From the NCBI RefSeq assembly GCF_013315695.1, contig NZ_CP054353.1: DNA of 64,000 nucleotides, one strand, 5' to 3'. This DNA comes from Escherichia coli. Lineage in GTDB: Bacteria; Pseudomonadota; Gammaproteobacteria; Enterobacterales; Enterobacteriaceae. A program made the translations under genes and the position numbers. Below are positions 3,244-57,977 of the stretch, in pieces. Below the pieces are notes generated by a model, which saw only the letters and a program-made list of their open reading frames with translations, did no database searches and was not told where the DNA came from. Numbering within the stretch: the stretch's first letter is position 1; the number at the start of each line of letters is the position of its first letter.

Positions 3244-3993
3244 ATGAATTCCCGACAACAAACTATTCTACAGATGGTCATTGACCAGGGTCAGGTTAGC
3301 GTAACCGATCTGGCAAAAGCCACTGGAGTTTCTGAAGTTACCATTCGCCAGGATCTCAACACCCTCGAAAAACTGAGTTACCTCCGCCGTGCACATGGCT
3401 TTGCAGTATCGCTTGATAGTGATGACGTCGAAACTCGTATGATGAGCAACTATACGCTGAAGCGTGAACTCGCTGAGTTTGCCGCGTCACTGGTTCAACC
3501 GGGCGAAACCATCTTTATCGAAAATGGCAGCAGCAATGCCTTGCTCGCCCGGACTCTGGGCGAGCAGAAGAAAAATGTCACGATCATCACGGTCAGCAGC
3601 TACATCGCGCATTTGCTGAAAGACGCGCCTTGTGAAGTTATTTTGCTCGGTGGCGTGTACCAGAAAAAAAGCGAAAGTATGGTTGGTCCTTTGACACGCC
3701 AGTGCATCCAACAGGTGCATTTCAGCAAAGCATTTATTGGTATTGATGGCTGGCAACCTGAAACTGGGTTTACCGGTCGCGATATGATGCGTACCGATGT
3801 GGTCAATGCCGTGCTGGAAAAAGAGTGCGAGGCGATAGTCCTGACTGACAGCTCGAAATTTAGTGCTGTACATTCATACTCCATCGGCCCCGTTGAGCGA
3901 TTCAATCGCGTGATTACCGATTCGAAAATACGCGCCAGCGATCTGATGCATCTTGAGCACAGTAAACTCACCGTTCACGTCGTTGACATTTAA
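3244..3993 (+). CDS. yciT: DeoR-family transcriptional regulator YciT
   Basis: 249-aa ORF with N-terminal HTH and DeoR C-terminal sugar-binding domain; synteny. Confidence 0.85.
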
Positions 3994-4261
3994 CCATTTC
4001 CCTTCTCTACGGATGATTTGCTGTTTTGCAAATCATCCGCTCTAAGATGATTCCTGGTTGATAATTAAGACTATTTACCTGTTATTAACACTTTCAAGAT
4101 ATAAAATTATTATCAGCGATATAACAGGAAGTCATTATCACCTGCGTGATATAACCCTGCGCGCGAGCGGATTTCACGGAATAATTTCACCAGGCTTATT
4201 CTTAGCTATTATAGTTATAGAGAGCTTACTTCCGTGAATCATAAATTCAGGAGAGAGTATT

Positions 4262-4480
4262 ATGTTTGTAACGAGCAAAAAAATGACCGCGGCTGTTCTG
4301 GCAATTACCCTGGCAATGTCTCTGAGTGCCTGTTCTAACTGGTCTAAACGAGACCGTAACACCGCAATTGGCGCGGGCGCAGGTGCATTAGGCGGTGCAG
4401 TACTGACCGATGGCAGTACGTTGGGTACATTAGGTGGTGCAGCCATCGGTGGTGTTATTGGTCACCAGGTCGGTAAATAA
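4262..4480 (+). CDS. osmB: osmotically inducible lipoprotein OsmB
   Basis: 72-aa ORF with lipobox (LSAC) and Gly-rich repeats; good RBS; synteny. Confidence 0.9.
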   Translation: MFVTSKKMTAAVLAITLAMSLSACSNWSKRDRNTAIGAGAGALGGAVLTDGSTLGTLGGAAIGGVIGHQVGK

Positions 4481-4574
4481 TCGTAAATAAATGTCGATTA
4501 TCGACTCGCAATTATAATACGCTTGATTCTGTTCAGTACGAAATAACTGAATAATACACACAGTAAAATATTCG

Positions 4575-4602
4575 AAAGCCACGGATATATCCGTGGCTTT
4601 TT
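4575..4602 (+). terminator. rho-independent terminator downstream of osmB
   Basis: GC hairpin gccacggatatatccgtggc followed by TTTTT. Confidence 0.6.
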
Positions 4603-4605
4603 ATG

Positions 4606-4932
4606 TTAGCCGCCTGCGAGTTTTACCTTCATCCCTTTCGCTTCAAGCAGTGATTTTAATAAATCACGCTTATCGCCCTGGATTTCAATAATTCCATCTT
4701 TAACTGCTCCGCCGCAGCCGCATTTTTTCTTCAGTTCCGCTGCCAGTTTCGTCAGTTCGGCATCATCGAGATCGACACCGGTAATCAGGCAAACGCCCTT
4801 ACCTTTACGTCCACTGGTCTGACGCTGAATACGCACCACACCGTCGCCTTTAGGGCGTACAGGGGCCGCTTTTGGCTCATCAATACGTCCGGTTTCCGTT
4901 GAGTAGACCAGACGGCTGTTGGAATCACTCAT
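4606..4932 (-). CDS. yciH: SUI1/eIF1-like translation factor YciH
   Basis: 108-aa product [21 protein letters not shown]...; overlaps pyrF stop as in K-12. Confidence 0.85.
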   Translation of the reverse strand: MSDSNSRLVYSTETGRIDEPKAAPVRPKGDGVVRIQRQTSGRKGKGVCLITGVDLDDAELTKLAAELKKKCGCGGAVKDGIIEIQGDKRDLLKSLLEAKGMKVKLAGG

Positions 4933-5669
4933 CATGCACTCCGCTGTAAAGAGGCGTTGATCGCTTTCAGCGTCTGCGCTGGATCTACCGATTGCGTTAC
5001 CGGGCGACCAATCACCATATAATCAACACCAGCCGCCAACGCCTGTTCTGGCGTCATAATGCGGCGCTGGTCACCTGCTTCACTCCCCTGCGGACGAATG
5101 CCCGGTGTAACCAGTTTGAACTCCTGACCGAATACCTGTTTAAAGCGCACAGCTTCCTGAGCAGAACACACCACACCATCAAGGCCACATTTTTGCGTCA
5201 GTGCCGCCAGACGTTCTGCATAATCTGCAGGTGACAGTGTCACGCCAAGATCGGCCAGGTCGCTGGCTTCCATGCTGGTCAATACTGTCACAGCAATCAA
5301 AAGCGGTGCATCTTTGCCAAACGGAACCAGTGCCTCACGCGCTGCGGTCATCATACGCGCCCCACCGGAGGCGTGAACATTCACCATCCACACGCCTAAG
5401 TCAGCTGCAGCAGCGACAGCGTGCGCTGCAGTGTTGGGAATATCGTGAAATTTCAGGTCGAGGAAGATATCAAAACCACGCTGTTGAAGTTCGCGTACAA
5501 ATTGAGGTCCAAACAGCGTAAACATCTCTTTGCCGACTTTCAGACGACAATCGCGTGGGTCGATCTTGTCGACAAAGGCCAGCGCGGCATCACGATTATG
5601 ATAATCAAGGGCAACAACCACAGGAGAATTCGTAACAGCGCGGGAAGAAGATGAAGCAGTTAACGTCAT
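4932..5669 (-). CDS. pyrF: orotidine-5'-phosphate decarboxylase
   Basis: Start chosen at [23 protein letters not shown]... within longer ORF 4932..5729; OMP decarboxylase family. Confidence 0.9.
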
Positions 5670-5860
5670 GACCAGACCTTCTTGATGATGGGCACCGGAA
5701 GTGGCGCGAAACAGGTAAACGGCGAGCATTCTACCCGTGGAAATAAAAAATTAACAGTTGCGATTTCTCCCCTGGCAGGCTTTTCCGCGCCGTCGGTGCC
5801 GGAGCACAATAGAACATCAATAATTAGTATGTTGTAACTAAAGTCGGATTTTTTTGAAAA

Positions 5861-7493: not shown

Positions 7494-8258
7494 TTAACTT
7501 TCTTGTTCTCGTTGCGCTATTTCGCGATTTTCTTCCGCAGGTGGTGTTAATGGCCCACAAATTCGTTGCGCAAGCCACGTTGCCACCGCCACCAGCGCCC
7601 ACGAAATCAACGTAGCTACTACCAGATCGCGTGGCCAATGCATCCCGAGCAGCAGGCGGCTTCCCATGACTCCAGTTGCCCAGACCAGCAAGATAGCAAT
7701 GGTTAACGTTCGCCGACGCGGCCACAGCAAACCAACGGCCAGCAGTGCCCAACTGGCAGCAAACATCGTGTGACCGGAAGGAAAGGCAAACCCCGTCTCT
7801 TTCTGCCAGTGTGAACGCAAATATTGTGGGATATTTTTCTCTTCAGCCAACTGTTCTTTCACTAGATTTCCGCGTTCTGCTCGCTTTAAAGTGTAGAACT
7901 CATCAACCGGAATATGATGTGTTTTTTCCAGCCAGATAACAAAAGGTCGTGGTTCCTGGACTTTGTCTTTGATCCAGGATTTAACGCCTTGTCCCACAAG
8001 GATTGCGGCCGCCAGAATGGCAAATAATACAAAGGCAGCCTTAATGCGAAAACGCAGACACCAGAAAAACCAGCCGAATAAAATCAAATGTGTAATGACG
8101 CCCCAGGGCTGGGTGACAGTTTCAGTAACCCAAAAAGCCGCTTTTAGTAGCCAACTTTGTTCTCCAGGTTGCCAACGCCAGCCAGAAATCCATACGGCTA
8201 CTGGCATGACAAGCAATAGTGCAGCTCCCACTGCGGTACGTCTGGCAATCGAACGCAT
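7494..8258 (-). CDS. pgpB: phosphatidylglycerophosphatase B (PAP2 family)
   Basis: 254-aa polytopic membrane ORF with PAP2 motifs (PSGH, SRxxxxxH); synteny. Confidence 0.9.
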   Translation of the reverse strand: MRSIARRTAVGAALLLVMPVAVWISGWRWQPGEQSWLLKAAFWVTETVTQPWGVITHLILFGWFFWCLRFRIKAAFVLFAILAAAILVGQGVKSWIKDKVQEPRPFVIWLEKTHHIPVDEFYTLKRAERGNLVKEQLAEEKNIPQYLRSHWQKETGFAFPSGHTMFAASWALLAVGLLWPRRRTLTIAILLVWATGVMGSRLLLGMHWPRDLVVATLISWALVAVATWLAQRICGPLTPPAEENREIAQREQES

Positions 8259-9081: not shown

Positions 9082-11757
9082 TTACTTCAACATATTACGA
9101 ATGACATAATGCAAAATGCCGTCGTTCTGGTAGTAGGTCAACTCCGTCGCGGTGTCGATACGACAACGGCAGGGTACGACCTCCTGGCTACCATCCGCGC
9201 GCGTAAGCGTCACCGGAACCGTCGCACCGGGCTGTAGATTTTGCAGATCGCCAATATCAATCTTCTCTTCCCCGGTTAGCCCTAACGTTTTACGCGTTAC
9301 GCCTTGCGGAAATTCCAGCGGCAGGATGCCCATGCCAATTAAATTCGAACGGTGAATTCGTTCAAACGATTCGGCAATCACCACACGAATGCCAAGTAGA
9401 CGCGGACCTTTTGCCGCCCAGTCACGGCTGGAGCCTGATCCATACTCTTTCCCGGCAATCACCGCCAGCGGCGTTTGCTCCTGCTTATAGCGCATCGCGG
9501 CATCATAAATAGAGATGACCTCGCTGTCAGGTAAATGCCGCGTCATCCCCCCTTCAACGCCAGGCACCATTTCATTACGGATGCGAATATTGGCGAAGGT
9601 GCCGCGCATCATCACTTCATGGTTACCACGCCGCGAACCGTAGGAGTTAAAGTCTTTGCGCTCAACACCCCGACCTTGTAGATATCGCCCCGCTGGGCTG
9701 TCGGGCTTAATACTGCCCGCCGGAGAGATATGGTCAGTGGTGACTGAATCCCCCAGCATTGCGAGGATCCGCGCACCGTGAATATCTTCCACAGGTGCTG
9801 GTGTTGCCTGCATTTCATCAAAGAAAGGCGATAAGCGAATATAGGTTGAATCCTCCTGCCAACCGTAGGTATCGGATCGTGCGACGTTAATTTCCTTCCA
9901 CTCTGCTGTGCCTTCAAAAACTTCTGCGTACTCTTTACGGAACATTTCTGTGGAGACTTGTTCTACCGCACGGGCAATTTCTTGTGCCGAGGGCCAGATA
10001 TCTTTCAGATATACCGGGTCGCCTTTACGATCGTGACCAATAGGCTCAGAAGCGAGGTTAATATTCATATTTCCCGCTAGCGCATAGGCAACCACCAGCG
10101 GCGGCGAGGCCAGCCAGTTAGTTTTAACCAGCGGATGGATACGGCCTTCAAAGTTACGGTTGCCGGACAGCACCGCACCGACGGTTAAATCGCCTTTTTT
10201 GATTGCCGTTTCGATAGGATCGGGCAATGGACCAGAGTTACCAATACAGGTGGTACAACCGTATCCCACAAGGTTAAACCCCAGTTCATCGAGATACGGT
10301 GTCAGTTTCGCTTTTGCCAAATAATCAGAAACGACTTTCGAGCCTGGTGCCAGCGACGCTTTGACCCACGGTTGCCGCTTGAGGCCCAGAGTTACAGCTT
10401 TTTTCGCCAGCAAACCTGCGGCCATCAGCACACTTGGGTTAGAGGTGTTGGTGCACGACGTTATCGCAGCAATGACCACCGCGCCATCAGGTAACTGATA
10501 CTGATGTCCGTTCATAACATAATCGACCGGCTGGCGATCTTTATGCGTGGCATTTACTTCCAGTTCGTTACTGGCGGCAAATGCTTTTGGTACATCGGGC
10601 AGTGCAACGCGATCCTGTGGGCGTTTTGGCCCTGCCAGGCTCGCTTCAACGTCATTCATATCCAGTTCTAACGTACTGGTAAAAATCGGTTCATCGCCCG
10701 GGTTACGCCACATGCCCTGCGCTTTGGCATATTTTTCGACCAACTCGACCTGATCTTCGCTGCGCCCGCTTAAACGCATGTAATCGAGGGTGACAGCATC
10801 GATTGGGAAGAAGCCACAGGTGGCACCATATTCTGGCGACATATTGGCAATGGTGGCGCGATCCGCCAGCGGTAGTGAATCCAGACCATCACCATAAAAT
10901 TCGACGAATTTCCCCACCACGCCATGTTTGCGCAGCATTTGGGTAACGGTGAGAACCAGGTCTGTGGCGGTAATACCTTCACGTAATTTTCCGGTAAGTT
11001 TAAAGCCTACTACGTCCGGGATAAGCATGGAAACCGGCTGGCCTAACATTGCGGCTTCGGCTTCGATCCCACCAACGCCCCACCCCAGCACGCCAAGGCC
11101 GTTGATCATGGTGGTGTGCGAGTCAGTACCAACGAGTGTATCCGGATAAGCAATCCATTCACCGTCCTGCAATTCGCTCCACACTGCTTTGCCGAGATAT
11201 TCGAGGTTAACCTGATGGCAAATGCCTGTGCCTGGCGGCACGACACTAAAACGACTGAACGCCTGCTTTCCCCATTTCAGGAACACATAACGTTCGTGGT
11301 TGCGCTCCATTTCCAGGCGCACGTTTTCTTCAAATGCCTCATCATCACCAAAACGATCGACGGTCACCGAGTGGTCAATGACCAGGTCGACCGGTGAGAG
11401 CGGGTTAACCTTTGCAGTATCGCCGCCGAGGCGTTTAACCGCTTCGCGCATTGCCGCCAGATCAACAACGGCAGGTACGCCGGTAAAGTCCTGCATCAGC
11501 ACTCTTGCCGGGCGGTAGGCAATTTCACGGTCAGCATGGGCATTTTTCAGCCATCCCGCCAGCGCGTGGATATCCTCTTCGGTAACCGATTTACCATCCT
11601 GCCAACGCAGCAGGTTTTCGAGCAAAACTTTGAGTGACTTGGGTAGACGGGTGATATCGCCCAGTGATTTGGCAGCAAGCGGCAAGCTGTAGTAGTGGTA
11701 AGTTTTATCTTTGGCCTGCAACGTGTCCTTACTGGCTTCTCGTAGGGTTGACGACAT
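9082..11757 (-). CDS. acnA: aconitate hydratase A
   Basis: 891-aa ORF, aconitase family with Fe-S ligand Cys residues; synteny. Confidence 0.95.
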
Positions 11758-41074: not shown

Positions 41075-41151
41075 TGGCGCGTTGTACTGGATTCGAACCA
41101 GTGACCGATTGCTTAGAAGGCAATTGCTCTGTCCGGCTGAGCTAACAACGC
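41075..41151 (-). tRNA. tRNA-Arg (anticodon UCU)
   Basis: Manual fold: acceptor GCGTTGT/ACAACGC, D-arm GCTC..GAGC, anticodon stem ATTGC/GCAAT with loop CTTCTAA, T-arm ACTGG TTCGAAT CCAGT, CCA end. Confidence 0.9.
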
Positions 41152-41164
41152 AGGATACAGATAA

Positions 41165-41241
41165 TGGACCGCCTTCGGGGACCCGAACTCCGCGCAACCA
41201 GCTTCGAAAGCTGGCGCTCTTTCCTGATGAGCTAATGGCGG
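41165..41241 (-). tRNA. tRNA-Arg-like (anticodon UCG), possibly degenerate
   Basis: Perfect anticodon stem CCAGC/GCTGG with loop TTTCGAA, but one mismatch each in acceptor and T stems and T-loop TTCGGGT lacks the conserved A58. Confidence 0.5.
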
Positions 41242-41248
41242 TATGTGA

Positions 41249-41324
41249 TGGTGGCCCTTGCTGGATTTGAACCAGCGACCTGGCGATTATGAGTCGCTCG
41301 CTCTCACCACTGAGCTAAAGGGCC
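41249..41324 (-). tRNA. tRNA-Ile2/Met type (anticodon CAU), ileX/ileZ-like
   Basis: GGCCCTTTAGCTCAGTGGTGAGAGCGAGCGACTCATAATCGCCAGGTCGCTGGTTCAAATCCAGCAAGGGCCACCA; near-identical to remembered E. coli tRNA-Ile2 (k2CAU). Confidence 0.85.
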
Positions 41325-42985: not shown

Positions 42986-43675
42986 TTAATTGACTTTTGC
43001 AATATCTCGTCGTGAAAAAGTCGCTTTTTGTTGCGCTCTTATTTTCACGGTGCAAATCACAGATTCTCTATCGAGACTCTTAAAAATATCGCACATCTCA
43101 CGCCAGTAGTTCGCATAATTATGGCTCCAGTTATCAGGCTTAACTCCACACAGTCTGGCAAGCTCCTGTCTCTGGTAGACCTCACACCCGGTAATCCATC
43201 CTCTGACATCCTGTGCCGCCAGCCAGATCAACTTCTTCACGCGCTCCTGCGTTTTCCCTGCAATTTTTCTGGTGCCGTACCGGGTTTTAAATTCATTCCA
43301 CACCCACTGCGTTATCGCGATCTGATATTCCCAACAAATACTCCCGCTGTAACACCACAACAACCAGGCTTTATGATGTTCTTCAAGAGACAGAACAGCC
43401 CGCCGCCACGATGATGTCGAAAACTCAACCGGACTGACGAGAGGAATTGACACCCCCTTCGCCAGCGATTGCTTTCCCGGGATTGGTGGATTATCCCGCG
43501 TTATCATTTTTCCAGTCACTTCATCGCGGTACCGGATTTTTTTACGCCTGTAACGCCCTGTATCAAACATGGCATTCTCCTGCCAGGCCTCAAGCTGCCC
43601 TTTTGTTGATCCACTCAAATCGGCGGTGGCAATCATGAGTTGCTCACGAACAAACTGTAAATACTGGTTATTCAT
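42986..43675 (-). CDS. putative late-gene antiterminator (Q-like), assigned by position
   Basis: 229-aa ORF immediately downstream of rusA and upstream of terminator and late genes; sequence itself not confidently recognised. Confidence 0.4.
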   Translation of the reverse strand: MNNQYLQFVREQLMIATADLSGSTKGQLEAWQENAMFDTGRYRRKKIRYRDEVTGKMITRDNPPIPGKQSLAKGVSIPLVSPVEFSTSSWRRAVLSLEEHHKAWLLWCYSGSICWEYQIAITQWVWNEFKTRYGTRKIAGKTQERVKKLIWLAAQDVRGWITGCEVYQRQELARLCGVKPDNWSHNYANYWREMCDIFKSLDRESVICTVKIRAQQKATFSRRDIAKVN

Positions 43676-44037
43676 GCGTACTCCAGTTCTGTGATTTTTA
43701 TCCCCAACCGCCCACCAGGAACAAGCTGACCGCGCACAATATTAATTTCATCAAACTGCTCGTCGTCTATGAGCAGCCCCGCATGCGTCAGTACATCCAG
43801 TGGTGCCTTCAGGATATTGTCCAGGTCACGACGGCGCTTATCCGGTGGCTCTGCAATAATTTCTATTGCCGGCCTTCCGGACAGGTTTAATTTCAGTTGC
43901 TGCTGGCGAACAATAAGCGCCACATCACGGCGATAACGCTCACCGACTTTTGATACAAAATATGTGCTGCCACGACGTCGCCAGTAAGTGTTCACCGTTG
44001 GCGGGTAAGGCAAAACAAATTCTATGCGTTCAGTCAT
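43672..44037 (-). CDS. rusA: Holliday-junction resolvase RusA
   Basis: 121-aa ORF with RusA motifs (LPYPPTVNTYW…, PDKRRRDLDNILKAPLDVLTHAGLLIDD). Confidence 0.85.
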   Translation of the reverse strand: MTERIEFVLPYPPTVNTYWRRRGSTYFVSKVGERYRRDVALIVRQQQLKLNLSGRPAIEIIAEPPDKRRRDLDNILKAPLDVLTHAGLLIDDEQFDEINIVRGQLVPGGRLGIKITELEYA

Positions 44038-45093
44038 TTATGCTTTCCACTTCAGAACACCCGAATTTCTCGCGTGCATTAAAAAACGAATCAGCAACAA
44101 CAGCTGGCTGCCGTGTTTTTCTTCAAAATCTTTTACCCCGGCGTGTAGTTCGCTATGGCATTTACGGCACAGCGGAATAACAAACAAATCATCAGCCTTT
44201 GTTCCCATCCCTCCCAGTCCATGACCAATGATGTGATGCGGATCATCTGCCTGATTGCCACACGTCATGCATTTCTGCGTTTTTACCCAACGCGTGTATA
44301 CAGGCATCTCTTCCCGTTGTGATTTCTGGCGCTGGAGATACTGAGCCGGTGACTCCGGATCAACGGCAATGCTGACCACCGTCTTTTCCTGTGGCGGGTT
44401 TTGCTGGTGGGCGTGAGGCAGCGGCGCAAGATTTTTTGTGCGCTGCTTCAGTATGCTGGTGGCGGTCTGCTCTCCCGGTACGATGTCGCTTTCACGGTAC
44501 ATTGAGCGGATTTTTTCCGCACGCAACCCCAGCGAACGACGTAATACCGCTTCCGGTAGCGCGTCCGCCACCTGATTGCGGACCGCCCACCAGGATAATT
44601 CAGCCAGCGATAATTCCCGTTCCTGCGAGCCATTCATTGCATGGCGTATGACGTCAATCATCCATGCAGACAGGTTTTGGTGAGCAAGTTGCCCGAGTGA
44701 TTCGGAGGTCTGGTCGCGCAGCTGGTTGTCGCAGTGCCAGCACAACACCATTGCGCCGGTACCATAACGGTGAATGACGGTTTCACTGTGGTGATAATCG
44801 CCGTGTGGCCACTGGCAGGATTTAACATGGCGCAGTAACCAGTCAGACAATGCGCCAGCGCCACCAGCAGCACGAATCACTCGTTCGTCGCTGAAAAATG
44901 GCAGTAATGATTTATCCTCCGCCAGCGGCTGGCGAACGGCAGGAACGACCCCGGACGGCAGATTACGCATGCTTTTCGGTTCCGGCTCCACCAGTACCCG
45001 GGTATTGTGGAATACCGGCATGGATTCACGGCCCGGCTTAACGATCACCAGCCCGAGTTCCGGTACCAGAACAGGTCGAAGTAATACCCGCAC
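44038..45093 (-). CDS. nin-region protein, DUF968-like with Cys/His-rich C-terminal region
   Basis: 351-aa ORF; C-terminus …CMTCGNQADDPHHIIGHGLGG…CRKCHSELH…; translationally coupled to upstream orf90. Confidence 0.45.
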   Translation of the reverse strand: MRVLLRPVLVPELGLVIVKPGRESMPVFHNTRVLVEPEPKSMRNLPSGVVPAVRQPLAEDKSLLPFFSDERVIRAAGGAGALSDWLLRHVKSCQWPHGDYHHSETVIHRYGTGAMVLCWHCDNQLRDQTSESLGQLAHQNLSAWMIDVIRHAMNGSQERELSLAELSWWAVRNQVADALPEAVLRRSLGLRAEKIRSMYRESDIVPGEQTATSILKQRTKNLAPLPHAHQQNPPQEKTVVSIAVDPESPAQYLQRQKSQREEMPVYTRWVKTQKCMTCGNQADDPHHIIGHGLGGMGTKADDLFVIPLCRKCHSELHAGVKDFEEKHGSQLLLLIRFLMHARNSGVLKWKA

Positions 45094-45094
45094 G

Positions 45095-45367
45095 TTACCT
45101 CCAGATGCGTTGCTGGAATGTGCGGGACGGACGCGGTGGGCGTTCAGAGTAAGGAAGCCTGACGGAGATTATCCAGTGACGATAATCGAGGCTGAGGGCT
45201 TTCTTAATCTCGTATCCGCGTCTGCGGTAGTTATGAATTAGCCATTCGGCCTGTTCTTCAGTACATGGTGGGTGTTGGTACCAGTCGGTTTTAAATGCGT
45301 GTGAACGCCGCCCATGCCGGATGGCAAGGTCGGTATCAGAATTGTGAAATTTGGTTTTGTGCGCCAT
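45095..45367 (-). CDS. hypothetical nin-region protein
   Basis: 90-aa ORF whose stop abuts the next start. Confidence 0.45.
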   Translation of the reverse strand: MAHKTKFHNSDTDLAIRHGRRSHAFKTDWYQHPPCTEEQAEWLIHNYRRRGYEIKKALSLDYRHWIISVRLPYSERPPRPSRTFQQRIWR

Positions 45368-45534
45368 CTGTTTTCTCTGCTGGCGCAGCAGGTGTCAGGT
45401 GTTCAGGCTGACGTGCGAATTGTAAACCAGAATGCCAGAAAAAAACAAAACCCGCCGAAGCGGGTTAAGTGCGGGTGCGTTGAGGATGCCTGACACATCA
45501 GAGGTGGCGAGGGATTTCTCCCCCGCCAGGTCTC

Positions 45535-45690
45535 TTACTCCTCAGGTTCGTAAGCTGTGAAGACAGCGACCTCCGTCTGGCCGGTTCGGAGTCGTACCTC
45601 GCAGAGGTCTTTCCTCGTTACCAGTGCCGTCACTATGACGGTTAAACAGATGACGATCAGGGCGATTAACATCGCCTTTTGCTGCTTCAT
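45535..45690 (-). CDS. hok: Hok/Gef-family type I toxin (HokD/RelF-like)
   Basis: MKQQKAMLIALIVICLTVIVTALVTRKDLCEVRLRTGQTEVAVFTAYEPEE, essentially the remembered HokD sequence; extended upstream frame (to 45747) corresponds to mok-like leader. Confidence 0.9.
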   Translation of the reverse strand: MKQQKAMLIALIVICLTVIVTALVTRKDLCEVRLRTGQTEVAVFTAYEPEE

Positions 45691-45927
45691 AGCCTGCTTC
45701 CCCTTGCCTTTCGGCACGTAAGAGGCTAACCTACATTTGTGAGACATAGATTGGGCCTCAGATTAATGTTAAGCGTCTTGCAGGACGCGAAATGTTAACT
45801 GGGGCTTTTCTCTATCTGCCTTTCAGTGTTCATGCCTGAGACAGATAGCCTCAAGCACCCGCAGCCATTCTACTTAACTCACGTCACCTCGCCAATATGA
45901 AATCAATCAGAAAGGTGATCCATAAAA

Positions 45928-46614
45928 TCACTCCTTCTCTTCTTTTCCGTAGTGGAGTTGGCCAATTTTGATAAGAGGGCGTCCCTGAGATTTGCGGTGT
46001 AGATTGGTATCGCGCAGAGAATACACACAGCCACAATATTCCTGCTGATAGAATTTTTCGCGCTTGCTGATTTCAATCATACGGGACGAGCCGCCCTGCT
46101 TGCGCCAGTTATAATCCCAGTACACCATACCCGGATAATGCGCAACAGCTCGCCGCCCACACTCGTTAACCTGCTGCATATTTTTCCAGCGTGAAATGCC
46201 CAGTGAACTGCTGATCACACTGAAACCATTTTCAGCAGCGTACAACGCTGTCCGCTCAAAACGCATGTCAAAACACATGGTACAACGGATCCCCCTCTCA
46301 GGCTCCCATTCCATTCCTTTGGCACGTTCAAACCAGTTGTCGGTGTCGTAATCAGCATCGATAAACGGCACGCCGTGTTGTTCAGCAAAGCGAATATTTT
46401 CATCCTTACGAATTAAATACTCTTTCTGAGGATGAATGTTCGGGTTGTAGAAAAAGATGGTGTAGTCGATTCCCGAGGCCTGAAGCGCCTCCATCACTTC
46501 ACCGGAACATGGAGCACAGCAAGAGTGCAGTAGTAGTTTGTTTGCCCCGTTTGGGAGCTCCAATTTAGGCCGTTTGAAATCAGCAATAGTCATAAATATT
46601 TTTATTGGGGTCAT
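45928..46614 (-). CDS. QueH-like (DUF208) putative epoxyqueuosine reductase
   Basis: 228-aa ORF with [11 protein letters not shown] motif plus additional Cys clusters (CTMCFD, YCGC) recalled as QueH/DUF208 signature; not verified by search. Confidence 0.5.
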
Positions 46615-50529: not shown

Positions 50530-50949
50530 ATGGACAAATATGAATTTAGACGACAGCAACTCATCAAAATTCGTGATGAGAAATGCGATGGTAAAGCGGT
50601 TAACGTGGCCAGAAAGATCGGGCGCGAGCCTTCTTATGTATCAAGAATGTTGTACCCAGAGGGGAAAAAGGGAAAAAAACGGATCGCTGATGATATGGTG
50701 GAGATTATCGAAGAGTCCTTTGGGTTACCCCGGGGATGGATGGATGGTATCGTTTCATCATCAACGAACACAGCCTCCAGTTATGAAACAAGGGTTCTAA
50801 CGCCACGACAACGTATTTTTTTAGATCTCTTAGACGAACTGCCAGAAAGTGAAGCGGATAAATTATTAAAAACTCTTGAAGAGAAAAAACAGTATTACAA
50901 TATGATCTACGAAGAAATCCGTAAAAAGAAAGCACAAAACGCATCATAG
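50530..50949 (+). CDS. prophage repressor, RacR-like (HTH, no S24 peptidase domain)
   Basis: 139-aa ORF with HTH (AVNVARKIGREPSYVSRMLY); divergent from cro-like gene. Confidence 0.7.
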   Translation: MDKYEFRRQQLIKIRDEKCDGKAVNVARKIGREPSYVSRMLYPEGKKGKKRIADDMVEIIEESFGLPRGWMDGIVSSSTNTASSYETRVLTPRQRIFLDLLDELPESEADKLLKTLEEKKQYYNMIYEEIRKKKAQNAS

Positions 50950-51028: not shown

Positions 51029-51213
51029 CCTTCTTTTCATACCAACCCACCCCGCCCCACAGAATGCAGGGCAATACTTCGAGTTACCAGGCAGTGGTCA
51101 GGGGTTAAGTAGCCAGCCCGAGGCGTAAGAACATGACGGCAGGGTTCAACTTTAATAACTATGCAGCAGGTTTTTGTTCCGCTACCCCGGCGTTAAGGGG
51201 AAATGAGGTCAGC

Positions 51214-51366
51214 ATGGATACTATCGATCTTGGCAACAGCGAATCTCTGGTATGTGGCGTGTTCCCCAACCAGGACGGTACGTTCACCGCGATGACGTAT
51301 ACCAGAAGCAAAACGTTTAAAACTGAAGCTGGCGCGCGTCGCTGGTTAACCAGAAACACTGACTGA
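51214..51366 (+). CDS. hypothetical small early protein (YdaF-like by position)
   Basis: 50-aa ORF MDTIDLGNSESLVCGVFPNQDGTFTAMTYTRSKTFKTEAGARRWLTRNTD with RBS; alternative start at 51133. Confidence 0.45.
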   Translation: MDTIDLGNSESLVCGVFPNQDGTFTAMTYTRSKTFKTEAGARRWLTRNTD

Positions 51367-52056: not shown

Positions 52057-52588
52057 GGGTCAGGTGGAGTGCGTGCGCCGGACACGGGTGAGCATCCGGC
52101 ACTGACAGCTTACTGAAAGGATATGTCCCTGAAAAGTCAGGGCATAACGCGAAAGCGCACGGCGAAATTGGTCTCTCTGTACGGTGTCGTTAAATTTAGT
52201 TCGACCGTGCGCTTCCGGTTGTGGCACTCCGCGAAATGGCGCGGCGGTAAGTATGGCTGGGGTTTCCTCCATTGCTCCAGAAAATGCACCGGGTTGTCAG
52301 GTTGACCATACGCTTAAGTGACAACCCCGCTACAACGCCCTCTGTTATCAATTTTCTGGTGACATTTGGCGGTATCAGTTTTACTCCGTGACTGCTCTGC
52401 CGCCCTTTTTAAAGTGAATTTTGTGATGCGGTGAATGCGGCTATGCGCACGCGGAACAGTTAAAGCAGTAAGGCGGTATTTTACGGGCGTAACGAGCATC
52501 AACTAACCCGGCGTTAATTGTTAACTGGTTAACGTCACCTGGAGGCACCAGGCACTGCATCACAAAATTCATTGTTGAGGACGCGATA

Positions 52589-52777
52589 ATGGAAACGTTA
52601 TTACCAAACGTTAATACGTCTGAAGGTTGTTTTGATATTGGTGTTCTGCTCAGTAACCGGGAGTTTACTGAAGATGCCATTAATATGAGGAAATATGAGC
52701 CTTATCTGCTCAATGATAATTCCATACTTTCCCGAATTGCTCTTCTTGAACTTGGTATTTTCGGAGAACGTCAATGA
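52589..52777 (+). CDS. hypothetical small protein
   Basis: 62-aa ORF with RBS; stop overlaps next start (ATGA). Confidence 0.45.
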   Translation: METLLPNVNTSEGCFDIGVLLSNREFTEDAINMRKYEPYLLNDNSILSRIALLELGIFGERQ

Positions 52778-52962
52778 CTTCAGCATTTGCACTGATGATG
52801 ACGGTTTTTCTTATAACGGGTGAATCACAGAATGTGATTACCGGAATTTATGCAAGTAAAGAATCCTGCCTCCAGGCAAGAGACGAGCAAAAAATTTCTG
52901 GTGAATGCCTCCCGCTAAAAAAAGTATCGCTGTACCTGAATAACGAAACACCGGCTGGATAA
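52774..52962 (+). CDS. hypothetical small protein with N-terminal hydrophobic segment
   Basis: 62-aa ORF MTSAFALMMTVFLITGESQ…, translationally coupled to previous ORF. Confidence 0.45.
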   Translation: MTSAFALMMTVFLITGESQNVITGIYASKESCLQARDEQKISGECLPLKKVSLYLNNETPAG

Positions 52963-53057: not shown

Positions 53058-55529
53058 ATGAGTAAGGTCTTTATTTGCGCTGCTATTCCTGATGAACAGG
53101 CCATAAAAGAAGATAGCGCTGTTGCGGTGGCCACTGCCATTGAAGCTGGTGATGAGCGTCGCGCACGCGCAAAATTTCATTGGCAATTTCTGGAGCAATT
53201 CCCTGCAGCTCAGGACTGCGCTTATAAATTTATTGTCTGTGAGGATAAACCCGGCATACCCCGCCCTGCCCTCGATTCCTGGGATGCTGAATATATGCAG
53301 GAAAACCGCTGGGATGAGGAGTCTGCTTCCTTTGTCCCGGTTGAGACTGAATCCGATCCGATGAACGTCACTTTTGACAAGCTGGCCCCTGAAGTACAGA
53401 ACGCTGTCATGGTTAAGTTCGACACATGTGAAAACATCACCGTTGATATGGTTATTAGCGCACAGGAATTGTTGCAGGAAGACATGGCAACATTCGACGG
53501 ACATATCGTTGAAGCGTTGATGAAAATGCCAGAAGTTAACGCCATGTATCCGGAGCTTAAGCTGCATGCCATCGGGTGGGTTAAGCATAAATGTAAGCCT
53601 GGTGCCAAATGGCCCGAAATTCAGGCAGAGATGCGCATCTGGAAAAAACGTCGCGAAGGTGAACGTAAGGAAACCGGAAAATACACGTCTGTTATTGATC
53701 TCGCCCGCGCCAGAACCAATCAACAGCACAGTGAAAATTCAACAGGAAAAATCAGCCCGGTCATTGCTGCCATTCATCGCGAATACAAGCAGACATGGAA
53801 AACACTGGATGACGAACTGGCCTACGCTCTCTGGCCTGGTGATGTGGATGCCGGAAACATTGACGGCAGCATCCATCGCTGGGCAAAAAATGAAGTTATC
53901 GACAACGACCGCGAAGACTGGAAGCGTATCTCGGCATCAATGCGCAAACAGCCTGATGCCCTTCGCTACGACCGCCAAACTATTTTTGGCCTTGTCCGTG
54001 AGCGTCCGATCGACATTCACAAAGATCCCGTAGCACTGAACAAATATATCTGCGAATACCTGACGACAAAGGGCGTGTTTGAGAATGAAGAAACAGACCT
54101 GGGCACTGTTGATGTTCTCCAGTCATCAGAAACACAAACTGATGCAGTGGAAACTGAGGTATCTGATATCCCAAAAAATGAAACCGCGCCGGAAGCTGAA
54201 CCATCTGTAGAGCGTGAGGGGCCGTTCTATTTCCTCTTCGCAGATAAGGACGGAGAAAAATGCGGTCGCGCAAACAAACTTTCTGGTCTGGATAAGGCAC
54301 TGGCTGCTGGCGCCACTGAAATCACAAAAGAAGAATATTTTGCCCGAAAAAATGGCACATACACGGGCTTACCGCAAAATGTAGATACCGCTGAAGATTC
54401 AGAACAACCAGAGCCGATAAAAGTTACCGCTGACGAAGTAAACAAAATTATGCAGGCAGCCAATATCAGCCAGCCTGACGCCGATAAGTTGCTTGCTGCA
54501 TCACGTGGTGAATTTGTTGAAGGGATTAGTGACCCGAATGATCCGAAATGGGTTAAGGGGATCCAGACCCGCGATTCTGTGAACCAGAACCAGCATGAAT
54601 CGGAACGGAACTACCAAAAAGCGGAACAAAACAGCCCAAATGCGTTACAAAACGAGCCAGAAACGAAACAGCCTGAACCAGTGGCGCAACAGGAAGTGGA
54701 AAAAGTCTGCACCGCCTGCGGTCAGACCGGCGGCGGCAACTGCCCTGATTGTGGCGCGGTGATGGGCGACGCAACATACCAGGAAACATTCGATGAAGAG
54801 TATCAGGTTGAAGTTCAGGAAGATGATCCGGAGGAAATGGAAGGCGCTGAACATCCACACAAGGAGAACACTGGCGGCAATCAGCATCACGATAGCGATA
54901 ATGAAACTGGCGAGACGGCAGATCGCTCAATTAAGGTGAACGGTCATCACGAAATCACATCCACCAGCAGGACGTGTGACCATCTAATGATCGACCTTGA
55001 AACCATGGGAAAAAATCCTGATGCCCCGATCATCTCAATAGGTGCAATATTTTTCGATCCGCAAACCGGAGATATGGGACCGGAATTTAGTAAGACTATC
55101 GATCTGGAAACTGCTGGCGGAGTCATTGATCGGGACACCATTAAATGGTGGCTTAAGCAATCACGCGAAGCGCAATCTGCCATTATGACCGATGAAATCC
55201 CGTTAGATGATGCACTGTTACAATTGCGGGAATTTATCGACGAAAACTCCGGTGAATTTTTTGTTCAGGTTTGGGGAAATGGAGCCAACTTCGACAACAC
55301 GATTTTGCGCCGTTCATACGAACGGCAGGGGATCCCCTGCCCGTGGCGTTACTACAACGATCGCGATGTACGCACAATCGTTGAGCTGGGGAAAGCCATA
55401 GACTTCGATGCCAGAACGGCTATTCCATTCGAAGGTGAGCGCCATAATGCACTTGATGACGCCCGTTACCAGGCAAAATACGTTTCAGTTATCTGGCAAA
55501 AACTGATCCCGAGTCAGGCTGATTTTTAA
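53058..55529 (+). CDS. exodeoxyribonuclease VIII-like protein with C-terminal DnaQ-type (DEDDh) 3'-5' exonuclease domain
   Basis: 823-aa ORF; acidic linker; C-terminal HLMIDLETMG…WGNGANFDNTIL…HNALDDARYQA exonuclease motifs. Confidence 0.7.
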   Translation: MSKVFICAAIPDEQAIKEDSAVAVATAIEAGDERRARAKFHWQFLEQFPAAQDCAYKFIVCEDKPGIPRPALDSWDAEYMQENRWDEESASFVPVETESDPMNVTFDKLAPEVQNAVMVKFDTCENITVDMVISAQELLQEDMATFDGHIVEALMKMPEVNAMYPELKLHAIGWVKHKCKPGAKWPEIQAEMRIWKKRREGERKETGKYTSVIDLARARTNQQHSENSTGKISPVIAAIHREYKQTWKTLDDELAYALWPGDVDAGNIDGSIHRWAKNEVIDNDREDWKRISASMRKQPDALRYDRQTIFGLVRERPIDIHKDPVALNKYICEYLTTKGVFENEETDLGTVDVLQSSETQTDAVETEVSDIPKNETAPEAEPSVEREGPFYFLFADKDGEKCGRANKLSGLDKALAAGATEITKEEYFARKNGTYTGLPQNVDTAEDSEQPEPIKVTADEVNKIMQAANISQPDADKLLAASRGEFVEGISDPNDPKWVKGIQTRDSVNQNQHESERNYQKAEQNSPNALQNEPETKQPEPVAQQEVEKVCTACGQTGGGNCPDCGAVMGDATYQETFDEEYQVEVQEDDPEEMEGAEHPHKENTGGNQHHDSDNETGETADRSIKVNGHHEITSTSRTCDHLMIDLETMGKNPDAPIISIGAIFFDPQTGDMGPEFSKTIDLETAGGVIDRDTIKWWLKQSREAQSAIMTDEIPLDDALLQLREFIDENSGEFFVQVWGNGANFDNTILRRSYERQGIPCPWRYYNDRDVRTIVELGKAIDFDARTAIPFEGERHNALDDARYQAKYVSVIWQKLIPSQADF

Positions 55530-55593
55530 TGTTCAACCCCGGTCGTTGCCCACCAGCTATAGTGGCGGCGACCATGATTAGCGAACGACGCCC

Positions 55594-55842
55594 ATGGCAA
55601 GACTTATTCTGCTCACTGAGTGGGCAAAAGAGGAATTCAGTGAACCGGTCCCTACTCCGAGTACGTTAAGTAAATACGCTAAAGCCGGAATGATATTTCC
55701 TCTCCCCAAAAAAGTTGGAAGACGCTGGCGAGTGGATCCGCAAGCTCGCTTTGTCGGAATGGTAAACAAGCCGGAGGTGATCGCCACAGATCACCCTGCT
55801 TTGAAGAGGATACTGGAAGATGGCGCGCCCGCGAAAATATAA
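55594..55842 (+). CDS. xis: excisionase-like protein
   Basis: 82-aa ORF immediately upstream of and overlapping the integrase gene. Confidence 0.6.
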   Translation: MARLILLTEWAKEEFSEPVPTPSTLSKYAKAGMIFPLPKKVGRRWRVDPQARFVGMVNKPEVIATDHPALKRILEDGAPAKI

Positions 55843-56950
55843 AACCGATGTTCCGGGATTATCTCCGTATTTTGACAAAAGAAATAACAAAGTTTACTGG
55901 CGTTACAGGCATCCCATAACAGGCAAAAATCACGGTCTCGGCAGTATTGACCAGAAACTGGCAGAAACTATTGCAGCAGAAGCGAACAGCCGTCTTGCCC
56001 GGCAGCAAATGGAACAAATGCTCAGTCTGCAGGAGAAAATTATTAGTGATACCGGCGGTTCATCAACCGTTACCATTTTTCTGAATAATTACAGAAAAAT
56101 TCAACAGGAAAGATATGAAAACGGCGAGATCAAACTCAACACGCTGAAACAGAAAGCAGCTCCTCTCAGGGTATTTGATGAACGTTTTGGCACCAGACCG
56201 TTAGATGCCATAACCGTAAAAGATGTGGTATCAGTACTGGAAGAGTACAAGGCCAGAGGACATAACAGAATGGGACAAATTTTCAGGAAAGTACTGATCG
56301 ATGTTTTCCGGGAAGCTCAGCAAACGGGCGATGTCCCGCCAGGCTTTAACCCTGCAGAATCGGCAAAAAAACCGCAGGTGCGGATATCAAGACAGCGACT
56401 GACTTTTGATGAGTGGATGATGATTTATAACGCAGCGGAAAAGGATGGTTACTTTTTACAGCGCGGTATGCTGCTGGCACTGATGACAGGCCAGCGCCTT
56501 TCAGATATTTGCAAAATGCAATTTTCGGATATCCGGGATGGTTATCTTCATGTCGAACAGCAAAAAACAGGAACCCGGATTGCCATCCCTCTGGCTCTGC
56601 GTTGCGATAAATTAAATCTCACCCTGGATGATGTGGTGTCATCCTGCCGCGATTGCGTTCTTAGTCCGTGGCTATTGCACCACCATCACGCGAAAGGGAC
56701 AGCTAAGCGCGGCGGGATGGTTAAGCCAGCAACATTAACCGTTGCATTTAAAAAAGCCCGGGATTCTGTGGATTACAACTGGCGTGCTAATGGCACCCCT
56801 CCCTCTTTCCATGAGCAGAGATCTTTATCAGAGCGATTGTTCAGAGAGCAGGGGGTTGATACCAAAATTTTGCTAGGCCATTCGAATCAAAAAATGACCG
56901 ATATTTACAACGACGCACGCGGTAAGGAATGGAAAAAACTGGTCATTTGA
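55820..56950 (+). CDS. int: tyrosine recombinase (lambda-type integrase)
   Basis: 376-aa ORF with catalytic-region motifs (…LMTGQRLSDICKMQFSDI…, …HHHAKGTAKRGG…, …LLGHSNQKMTDIY…); 3' end 35 bp from ompW stop. Confidence 0.85.
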   Translation: MARPRKYKTDVPGLSPYFDKRNNKVYWRYRHPITGKNHGLGSIDQKLAETIAAEANSRLARQQMEQMLSLQEKIISDTGGSSTVTIFLNNYRKIQQERYENGEIKLNTLKQKAAPLRVFDERFGTRPLDAITVKDVVSVLEEYKARGHNRMGQIFRKVLIDVFREAQQTGDVPPGFNPAESAKKPQVRISRQRLTFDEWMMIYNAAEKDGYFLQRGMLLALMTGQRLSDICKMQFSDIRDGYLHVEQQKTGTRIAIPLALRCDKLNLTLDDVVSSCRDCVLSPWLLHHHHAKGTAKRGGMVKPATLTVAFKKARDSVDYNWRANGTPPSFHEQRSLSERLFREQGVDTKILLGHSNQKMTDIYNDARGKEWKKLVI

Positions 56951-57623: not shown

Positions 57624-57977
57624 ATCCGCTCCGTCGTTATGGTTATAAAAACGTGACGAATATACCCACATTGGAGTAACAAATGATCCTACACAGATCA
57701 CATTATATATGATAATTCACCCTTTATTGATCTGGATTAATTTAGAAGTTGCACTGTGAATCCTGGTTAATGTGATTTAAATCAATTCCTATATATTTCA
57801 CTACGCAAACATTAACTCGCTCGCCACTTGCTGCGGTTTGCCCATAGCTTAGACCCGCAATTACCTCCGCTTTACAAAGATATGCTTTTCCATACAAGAC
57901 CTGATGCTGCCACCCGAGGCTTAACCAGGGTACAATTGCCCGCTAATTAACACCTGCATAAAACTCAAGGAGAGTGC

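Follow-up and report, generated by a model that had tools for sequence, protein, structure and literature searches.

We describe here a prophage gene at 53058..55529 (plus strand) in a 64,000-nucleotide stretch of the Escherichia coli contig NZ_CP054353.1 (assembly GCF_013315695.1; hereafter the window) that stands in the position of recE, the exonuclease VIII gene of the Rac prophage. By sequence comparison, its product of 823 amino acids (aa) is a three-part mosaic: a YdfE-type head (1-260), the non-catalytic middle of RecE (262-625) and, as cargo, a DEDDh 3'-5' exonuclease domain (642-813). The exonuclease and annealase pair of a two-component phage recombinase is not present, as the nuclease is of a different type and the annealase gene is absent, and the prophage is rich in Chi sites. 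We propose that the fusion protein trims DNA 3' ends during the lytic growth of a phage that has no annealase of its own and depends on the host RecBCD and RecA, a reading to which we give a probability of about 0.45. The gene and the parts of its product are located as follows:

53058..55529, plus strand: scaffold-DEDDh exonuclease gene, the intact form of the K-12 pseudogene ydfE (open reading frame with ATG start, 823 aa)
53058..53837, plus strand: YdfE_N-type head, aa 1-260, with a small alpha/beta domain (1-100) followed by a helical domain (105-206)
53841..54932, plus strand: region homologous to the RecE middle, aa 262-625 (BLASTP, partial NF007259 match, AlphaFold2 model), carrying the conserved LAASRGEFVEGISDPNDPKWV motif
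54708..54782, plus strand: Cys4 zinc-ribbon-like motif CTACGQTGGGNCPDCGAVMGDATYQ, aa 551-575 (read from the sequence; conserved at K-12 RecE 517-541)
54981..55496, plus strand: DEDDh 3'-5' exonuclease domain, aa 642-813 (Pfam PF16473; catalytic D646, E648, D746, H796 and D801)

The C-terminal cargo is a complete DEDDh domain

At the DNA level, the gene is 100% identical to the RefSeq coding sequence of WP_016236065.1 ('3'-5' exonuclease'), and phrog_2082 covers the protein end to end. The C-terminal domain matches the Rv2179c-like 3'-5' exoribonuclease family PF16473 over the full length of the model (2-177 of 177; E=2.4e-67), scoring 226.5 bits against a gathering cut-off of 27; the general RNase_T family appears as a weak secondary match. 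An initial annotation, made from the sequence alone, had read DEDDh motifs in this region rather than a RecE fold. The domain search bears this out, since the three Exo motifs are found (IDLET at 645-649, FDNTIL at 745-750 and HNALDDA at 796-802) and a match to the RecE nuclease is absent.

An alignment of 8 homologues, among them five fused ones, the standalone protein of phage epsilon34 and a standalone EcD-like protein (both described below), shows no variation at the five catalytic residues, which are kept down to 37% identity. The domain is complete, its catalytic residues are intact and the match lies far above chance. Searching the PDB with phmmer returned T4 DexA (8kel, E=1.5e-6) as the only solved relative and did not retrieve the Rv2179c structure. 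By its domain, the 823-aa protein is thus a predicted 3'-5' exonuclease, whose sequence appears nearer to DexA than to Rv2179c.

The head and middle form a RecE/YdfE-type scaffold

Over aa 1-256 the protein shares 95% identity with the K-12 Qin pseudogene ydfE; IS2E interrupts this pseudogene at the point where the similarity stops, and the 823-aa protein is therefore the intact YdfE. The Pfam families PF27430 (YdfE_N) and PF27432 (YdfE_C) are recorded on a 93%-identical homologue and were not scored on the window protein itself. The PF06630 (RecE_N) head of RecE is absent, and YdfE_N stands in its place. The long N-terminal region had been described as acidic and unassigned; it is acidic, with 123 D+E against 71 K+R in the first 640 aa, and it is now assigned in part through YdfE. 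An AlphaFold2 model of aa 1-470 (mean predicted local distance difference test score, pLDDT, of 84) shows an alpha/beta domain at 1-100, helical domains at 105-206 and 246-338 and a beta-hairpin/helix domain at 388-431, joined by acidic and disordered linkers. To our knowledge, the RecE N-terminal region has had no known function for decades; the RecE N-terminal domain improves linear-linear recombination.

In a BLASTP comparison with K-12 RecE, aa 262-625 pair with RecE 278-591 (40% identity, E=5e-62), and no alignment to the 823-aa protein extends beyond RecE residue 591. The NCBIfam RecE equivalog NF007259 likewise matches aa 246-625 only (model 271-602 of 877), and its 285.6 bits fall short of the cut-off of 1269. 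The RecE PD-(D/E)XK nuclease, PF12684 (RecE 564-866), has no Pfam match in the protein, and a tblastn query with RecE 601-866 has none in the 64-kb window. The description of the product as 'exonuclease VIII-like' thus holds for the non-catalytic stretch of aa 262-625 and fails elsewhere.

The last ~150 aa of the RecE-like middle, which include the Cys4 motif, are far more conserved than the remainder. The same motif, in the form CxxCG..GGxCPDCGxVxGDATY, also ends an unrelated Dam-like methyltransferase (locus L020, 5187-6167, minus strand), which adjoins an EcD-like DEDDh gene in another mobile element. From these occurrences, the motif looks like a portable module of ~25 aa used by DNA enzymes of early operons.

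No annealase partner in the prophage or in related loci

The initial annotation placed the gene in the recE position, directly ahead of xis-int and with no annealase gene. The slot is confirmed by a Rac-type operon of the order kilR-ydaE-gene-xis-int, in which the product is 100% identical to K-12 RecE over aa 1-277 and carries the same DEDDh tail, and from which recT is absent. This locus follows K-12 Rac at 96% DNA identity up to about recE codon 590 and is diverged beyond; the breakpoint of recE DNA homology corresponds to window position 54924. A cassette of 1.04 kb (54504..55539) is common to the window and the Rac-type locus at 94% identity and ends 10 bp past the stop codon. In the window, xis begins 64 bp downstream of the gene and is followed by int.

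The interval 52.0-53.0 kb, where a recT-like gene might have stood, contains no recT and is occupied by DicF, dicB and ydfD. We queried the whole window by tblastn (E<=1) with RecT, lambda Bet, Exo and Gam, epsilon34 gp36, SSB and Abc2, the Rad52-like domain introduced below and the RecE nuclease, and obtained no match except the DEDDh domain itself. The annotation of an identical prophage by the Prokaryotic Genome Annotation Pipeline (PGAP) lists no annealase, SSB or anti-RecBCD gene. A hidden annealase elsewhere in the window was rejected on these two grounds. The two findings that could have overturned the initial annotation, a RecE fold at the C-terminus and a recT-like gene at 52-53 kb, were both sought; we found a DEDDh domain and no recT-like gene in the window. 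The annotation was right on every point that could be checked, and its interpretation is supported.

The same arrangement recurs in 80 IMG/VR loci selected for a DEDDh domain at least 99% identical to that of the window. The domain is fused to a RecE-like middle in 80/80, behind a YdfE_N head in 43 and a RecE_N head in 34, and dicB and ydfD lie upstream in 73. RecT, Bet, Exo, Gam, SSB, Abc2 and the Rad52-like domain were found in 0 of the 80.

The prophage is rich in Chi sites

The window prophage (11500-56950, 45.4 kb) holds 20 copies of Chi (GCTGGTGG/CCACCAGC), against ~1.4 expected by length alone (2 strands x 45.4 kb / 65,536), and Chi is its most frequent octamer. Fourteen copies lie on the minus strand, which, judging from gene order, would be the orientation in which Chi acts in lambda. 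The 46-kb phage Tritos (DEDDh cargo) has 11 copies, the CFSAN061769 prophage (46 kb, Rad52-like annealase cargo) has 2, and the sampled early regions of Rac, lambda and epsilon34 have 0. Phage LLS has 23, and Chi as the top octamer has been reported for LLS and P1. A 'no Rec module, high Chi' class of phages has been linked to dependence on the host RecBCD (Zheng et al. 2025, PMC12315714; Bobay et al. 2013), and the pattern of the window prophage fits this class.

Two of the minus-strand copies flank the DEDDh cassette:

54961..54968, minus strand: Chi site GCTGGTGG at the upstream border of the cassette, ~40 nt from the recE breakpoint at 54924
55550..55557, minus strand: Chi site downstream of the cassette, 21 nt past the stop codon and 11 nt past the cassette end at 55539

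These two sites of the same orientation may have aided the movement of the cassette. Tritos keeps only the upstream one, and locus L007 has exactly two minus-strand Chi in total.

One scaffold carries three types of cargo

Homologue searches with the whole protein returned only near-identical E. coli copies; the diversity of the family became visible when aa 1-640 were used as the query in an exhaustive search. With only 250 relatives found among 1.84 billion representative proteins, the family is narrow. When mapped by domain, its members show two types of head, YdfE_N or RecE_N (PF06630), and three types of tail: the PD-(D/E)XK nuclease of the RecE type (PF12684), the DEDDh domain and a third domain of ~275 aa.

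This third tail, with the signature KKSLTDAxKKALSxLGFxADV, has no Pfam match at E<=0.001, and shows a weak but repeated match to Pfam Rad52_Rad22 in 8 of 10 members. Foldseek missed the Rad52 likeness on a model of the tail (pLDDT 81), and sequence and profile searches of the PDB gave no match. On the sequence evidence, it is very likely that the proteins with this tail are the 'RecE-2' class (phrog_2489), carrying a Rad52-like annealase as cargo instead of a nuclease. 'RecE-2' proteins have been described as having no nuclease domain and no known role (Zheng et al. 2025, PMC12315714). They share with the window protein a YdfE_N or RecE_N head, the middle region and the slot before xis-int; they differ in the cargo, the Rad52-like domain with a coiled-coil tail, and a Gp157-family gene comes next. 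At least 448 E. coli genomes encode such proteins, labelled 'exonuclease family protein' or 'hypothetical protein'.

These swaps allow a broader conjecture, which we consider rather unlikely as a whole. The RecE/YdfE N-terminal region could be a general delivery scaffold, directing to a single target (for example a DNA end, RecBCD, SSB or the replisome) whichever exchangeable DNA-end enzyme it carries: a nuclease of 5'-3' or of 3'-5' polarity, or a Rad52-like annealase. In E. coli the DEDDh version is the most frequent, and it might then be a one-gene recombination strategy that prepares ends for the host Chi-RecBCD pathway and does not replace that pathway. Three natural cargo swaps on one scaffold offer a direct experimental handle on the role of the scaffold.

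Relation to known nucleases and recombination proteins

RecE of the Rac prophage, which acts with RecT, shares with the window protein the early-left position before xis-int and the middle region including the Cys4 motif, and sister DEDDh proteins bear the exact RecE N-terminus. The window protein differs in having no PD-(D/E)XK domain, PF06630 head or recT, and its expected polarity is the opposite. T4 DexA (exonuclease A, PDB 8kel) belongs to the same DEDDh family, PF16473; its first three catalytic residues align (DexA 4-162), and the H-x4-D pair corresponds through the Pfam match. DexA is, however, a distant relative (phmmer E=1.5e-6), a standalone protein of 227 aa from a lytic phage with modified DNA, and has W152 where the window protein has Y765.

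The closest standalone orthologue is gp34 of the Salmonella phage epsilon34, a DnaQ-like protein of lambdoid Rec modules (PMC12315714) that is 56% identical over 180 aa and is likewise encoded in a lambdoid early-left operon. It has 182 aa and is flanked by a recombination protein, SSB and Abc2, whereas the window domain is fused to a 640-aa scaffold and those partners are absent. In the stretch 3778-5858 of the epsilon34 locus L010, the gp34 gene has an SSB gene and abc2 as its neighbours and a gene for a 235-aa 'putative recombination protein' upstream, and is still labelled 'putative exodeoxyribonuclease VIII'.

Another DexA-family nuclease known from E. coli genomes is EcD/HREX (Kang et al. 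2025, PMC12153337). We rejected the identity of EcD with the window protein: the published primers give a gene starting MIDTET, which matches a family of 189-aa proteins only 37% identical to the DEDDh domain. The EcD-like protein is standalone, lies in another element beside a Dam-like methylase and has A78 where the window protein has D718. The host enzymes ExoI and ExoX share the chemistry of the DnaQ superfamily with the window protein and have no RecE-type scaffold. They resemble it in the 3'-tail trimming for RecBCD loading (PMC5592934) that we propose here.

Proposed function and alternative explanations

In the model we favour, the exonuclease would be co-transcribed with dicF-dicB-ydfD-xis-int from the repressed early-left operon, and would thus be absent from the lysogen and appear once the prophage is induced or a cell is infected. 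It would remove nucleotides from DNA 3' ends, with a polarity opposite to that of RecE and with no dedicated annealase. The lack of a Rec module together with the richness in Chi points to a probable dependence of the phage on host RecBCD and RecA. In such a phage, an ExoI/ExoX-like activity supplied by the phage itself could trim 3' tails and leave blunt ends for RecBCD loading; it might also hold down recombination that is of RecF type or driven by annealases. Through the shared scaffold, the cargo would reach the target that RecE and the proteins with Rad52-like cargo also reach.

Several observations agree with this proposal. Host 3'-5' single-strand exonucleases make the blunt ends needed for RecBCD reloading (PMC5592934). 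The standalone orthologue in the epsilon34 Rec module provides a link to recombination, and the DnaQ-like nuclease of this type has been judged a genuine Rec-module member (Zheng et al. 2025, PMC12315714). The same scaffold elsewhere bears the RecE nuclease or the Rad52-like annealase, which supports a role on DNA, and we infer that the substrate is DNA and not RNA. Selection for the gene is supported by its presence in intact form in 4068 of 5426 complete E. coli genomes and in isolated phages.

Other observations weigh against the proposal. Exonucleases of 3'-5' polarity usually inhibit recombination, and the DnaQ genes near int have not been counted as Rec-module genes (Zheng et al. 2025, PMC12315714). 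The name of the family PF16473 and many RefSeq names say exoribonuclease. The Chi comparison sets two phages against one, a small sample. In the 80 related loci, up to ~160 of the 247 Chi may, by our estimate, be two conserved sites flanking the cassette; we therefore relied on the whole-phage counts. The tethering role given to the scaffold is guesswork, because the scaffold has no informative structural match. We found no experiment on the 823-aa protein in the literature.

An alternative that we regard as unlikely, and yet take seriously, is a nuclease of defence or competition, which would, like EcD, attack superinfecting T-even phages by degrading their 5-hydroxymethylcytosine (5hmC) DNA, or act likewise on DNA from other competitors. 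The neighbouring gene dicB protects against some phages, which would suit such a role. EcD expressed from a plasmid is reported to make E. coli resistant to T4 and to cut 5hmC DNA (Kang et al. 2025, PMC12153337), and it belongs to the same Pfam family, of which it is the sole E. coli member with reported activity; the 189-aa EcD-like protein found through the published primer shows the described A78 and shares 37% identity with the DEDDh domain. EcD is nevertheless a different, standalone paralogue. Of the two DexA residues reported to recognise 5hmC, W152 and D169, the tryptophan corresponds to Y765 here and is Y, C or W among the fused homologues, and the aspartate lost in the EcD state (DexA D90, the tetramer Asp) is retained as D718. 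Moreover, typical exclusion genes are expressed in the lysogen, whereas the exonuclease gene is part of the repressed early-left operon and has no promoter-like site to itself. We hold a two-part recombinase to be more doubtful, in which the protein would be one partner and the annealase would come in trans from a different prophage or from a phage infecting the same cell. As many as 7 copies of the cassette occur in one E. coli genome, 32% of the genomes also have recE-recT, the RecE middle is retained, and the scaffold bears a Rad52-like annealase in other phages. Such a partnership would nonetheless have to work without selection for linkage, given that a linked annealase was found in 0/80 loci, and in the classical pathway annealases act on 3' tails, which a 3'-5' enzyme would destroy. 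RecT binds RecE specifically, and the RecE nuclease domain alone, absent from the window protein, genetically replaces full-length RecE (PMC11611040).

Two further roles of nucleases of this family appear similarly improbable. T4 DexA, the nearest solved relative, has host-DNA scavenging as one of its two described roles, and the window protein might in the same way finish DNA fragments for nucleotide salvage during lytic growth. Wholesale degradation of host DNA is not known from lambdoid phages; a 640-aa scaffold of RecE type would be superfluous for a salvage enzyme, and the standalone orthologues are located in Rec modules. A 3' exonuclease of RNA, comparable to Rv2179c and directed after induction against RNAs of the phage or the host, would accord with the naming of the Pfam family after the Mycobacterium tuberculosis exoribonuclease, with the many RefSeq entries called '3'-5' exoribonuclease' and with the processed small RNA, DicF, that the operon yields. 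DicF processing, though, uses host RNases, the PDB sequence search retrieves the DNase DexA and not Rv2179c, and the alternative cargoes of the scaffold are DNA enzymes. Finally, the fusion could be a functionless relic of a domain swap that is passively carried, as might be suspected from the K-12 copy, a pseudogene cut by IS2E, and from the many defective prophages. We consider this highly improbable, as the full-length reading frame is intact in thousands of genomes, the catalytic residues are invariant down to 37% identity and the gene is present in isolated phages.

Prevalence and naming of the gene

The DEDDh cassette was found in 4068 of 5426 complete E. coli genomes (75%), at 8095 places, with up to seven per genome and mostly at >=95% identity. 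The K-12 recE nuclease segment was found in 1735 of the same 5426 (32%), with recT at the recE-nuclease match in every case among the matches listed. Complete E. coli genomes with the DEDDh form therefore outnumber those with true recE by more than two to one, and yet this form is uncharacterised; we found no functional study of YdfE, or of the fusion of YdfE, RecE middle and DEDDh domain, in the literature. The phages concerned include many prophages of pathogenic E. coli, in which recombination between prophages moves virulence genes.

The fusion gene is neither rare nor unrecognised. Sporadic DnaQ-type genes near int in lambdoid phages, outside recognisable Rec modules, have been reported (Zheng, Casjens, Davidson, Amundsen and Smith, Genome Res 2025, PMC12315714), and RefSeq product names for the protein are 'exonuclease', '3'-5' exonuclease' and '3'-5' exoribonuclease'. 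The core finding is thus not new, since a DnaQ-type nuclease near int was published in 2025 and the RefSeq label is already correct. New here are the identity with intact YdfE, the precise mosaic, the scaffold with three cargoes including a Rad52-like annealase, and the link to a Chi-rich phage without a Rec module. The GenBank records of phages Tritos and 813R8 name the gene 'exonuclease VIII'. This name, like the RefSeq label 'exonuclease family protein' of the sister proteins with annealase cargo, would mislead the choice of recombineering enzymes and the scoring of prophages as Rec+ or Rec-.

The early-left operon and the prophage

The gene is the last but two in an early-left operon of the Qin type, whose other features are:

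50530..50949, plus strand: gene in the position of the cI/DicA repressor, at the head of the operon (open reading frame; dicA of K-12 Qin and the 'CI repressor' gene of phage Tritos hold this position)
51133..51366 (PGAP start 51214), plus strand: ydfA-like DUF1391 gene (Pfam PF07151, E=7e-27)
52354..52405, plus strand: DicF small RNA (Rfam RF00039 at 77 bits; gathering score 48)
52589..52777, plus strand: dicB cell-division inhibitor gene (Pfam PF05358, E=6e-37)
52774..52962, plus strand: ydfD-like DUF1482 gene, directly upstream of the exonuclease gene (Pfam PF07358; K-12 Qin gene order)
55594..55842, plus strand: excisionase gene xis (Pfam PF07825), after a spacer of 64 bp
55820..56950, plus strand: lambda-type tyrosine integrase gene int (Pfam PF09003 and PF00589); the prophage end adjoins ompW

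One further small open reading frame lies between the ydfA-like gene and DicF, and the protein in the repressor position has no Pfam match. The order matches that of K-12 Qin (dicA-ydfABC-dicF-dicB-ydfD-ydfE-intQ) and recurs in two isolated phages, Tritos and vB_EcoS-813R8. No promoter-like site was found directly upstream of the exonuclease gene by a simple consensus scan, a weak form of evidence, and a simple scan found no terminator-like site between ydfD, the exonuclease gene and xis. The gene is therefore probably expressed only when the early-left operon is derepressed.

The prophage is complete and lambda-like and extends from ~11.5 kb to 56.95 kb. The dicF-dicB-ydfD block (52354-52962) is intact in this apparently complete prophage, in the order known from the cryptic Qin. 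In its nin-type region (~43672-46593, minus strand), the annotation of an identical locus (L001) shows the RusA resolvase, a DUF968 protein, hokD and the epoxyqueuosine reductase QueH; by this annotation, RusA is the sole other recombination-related gene of the prophage. Three tRNA genes, Arg-tct, Arg-tcg and one with anticodon CAT, lie in the late region (41075-41324, minus strand), adjoined by a DNA methyltransferase gene. The tRNA with the CAT anticodon is called Met by ARAGORN and Ile by RefSeq (presumably lysidine-modified).

A full YkgJ-family gene lies at ~11141-11473, at the tail-fibre end of the prophage (annotation of loci L002 and L001), and a short fragment of a YkgJ-family gene lies at ~57872-57961 beside ompW, at the int end, with coordinates possibly ~11 nt off owing to a small indel relative to L001. 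The occurrence of gene and fragment at opposite ends of the prophage suggests that the attachment site is within or beside the YkgJ-family gene. An IS1 and a vapA/vapB-like gene lie directly outside the prophage.

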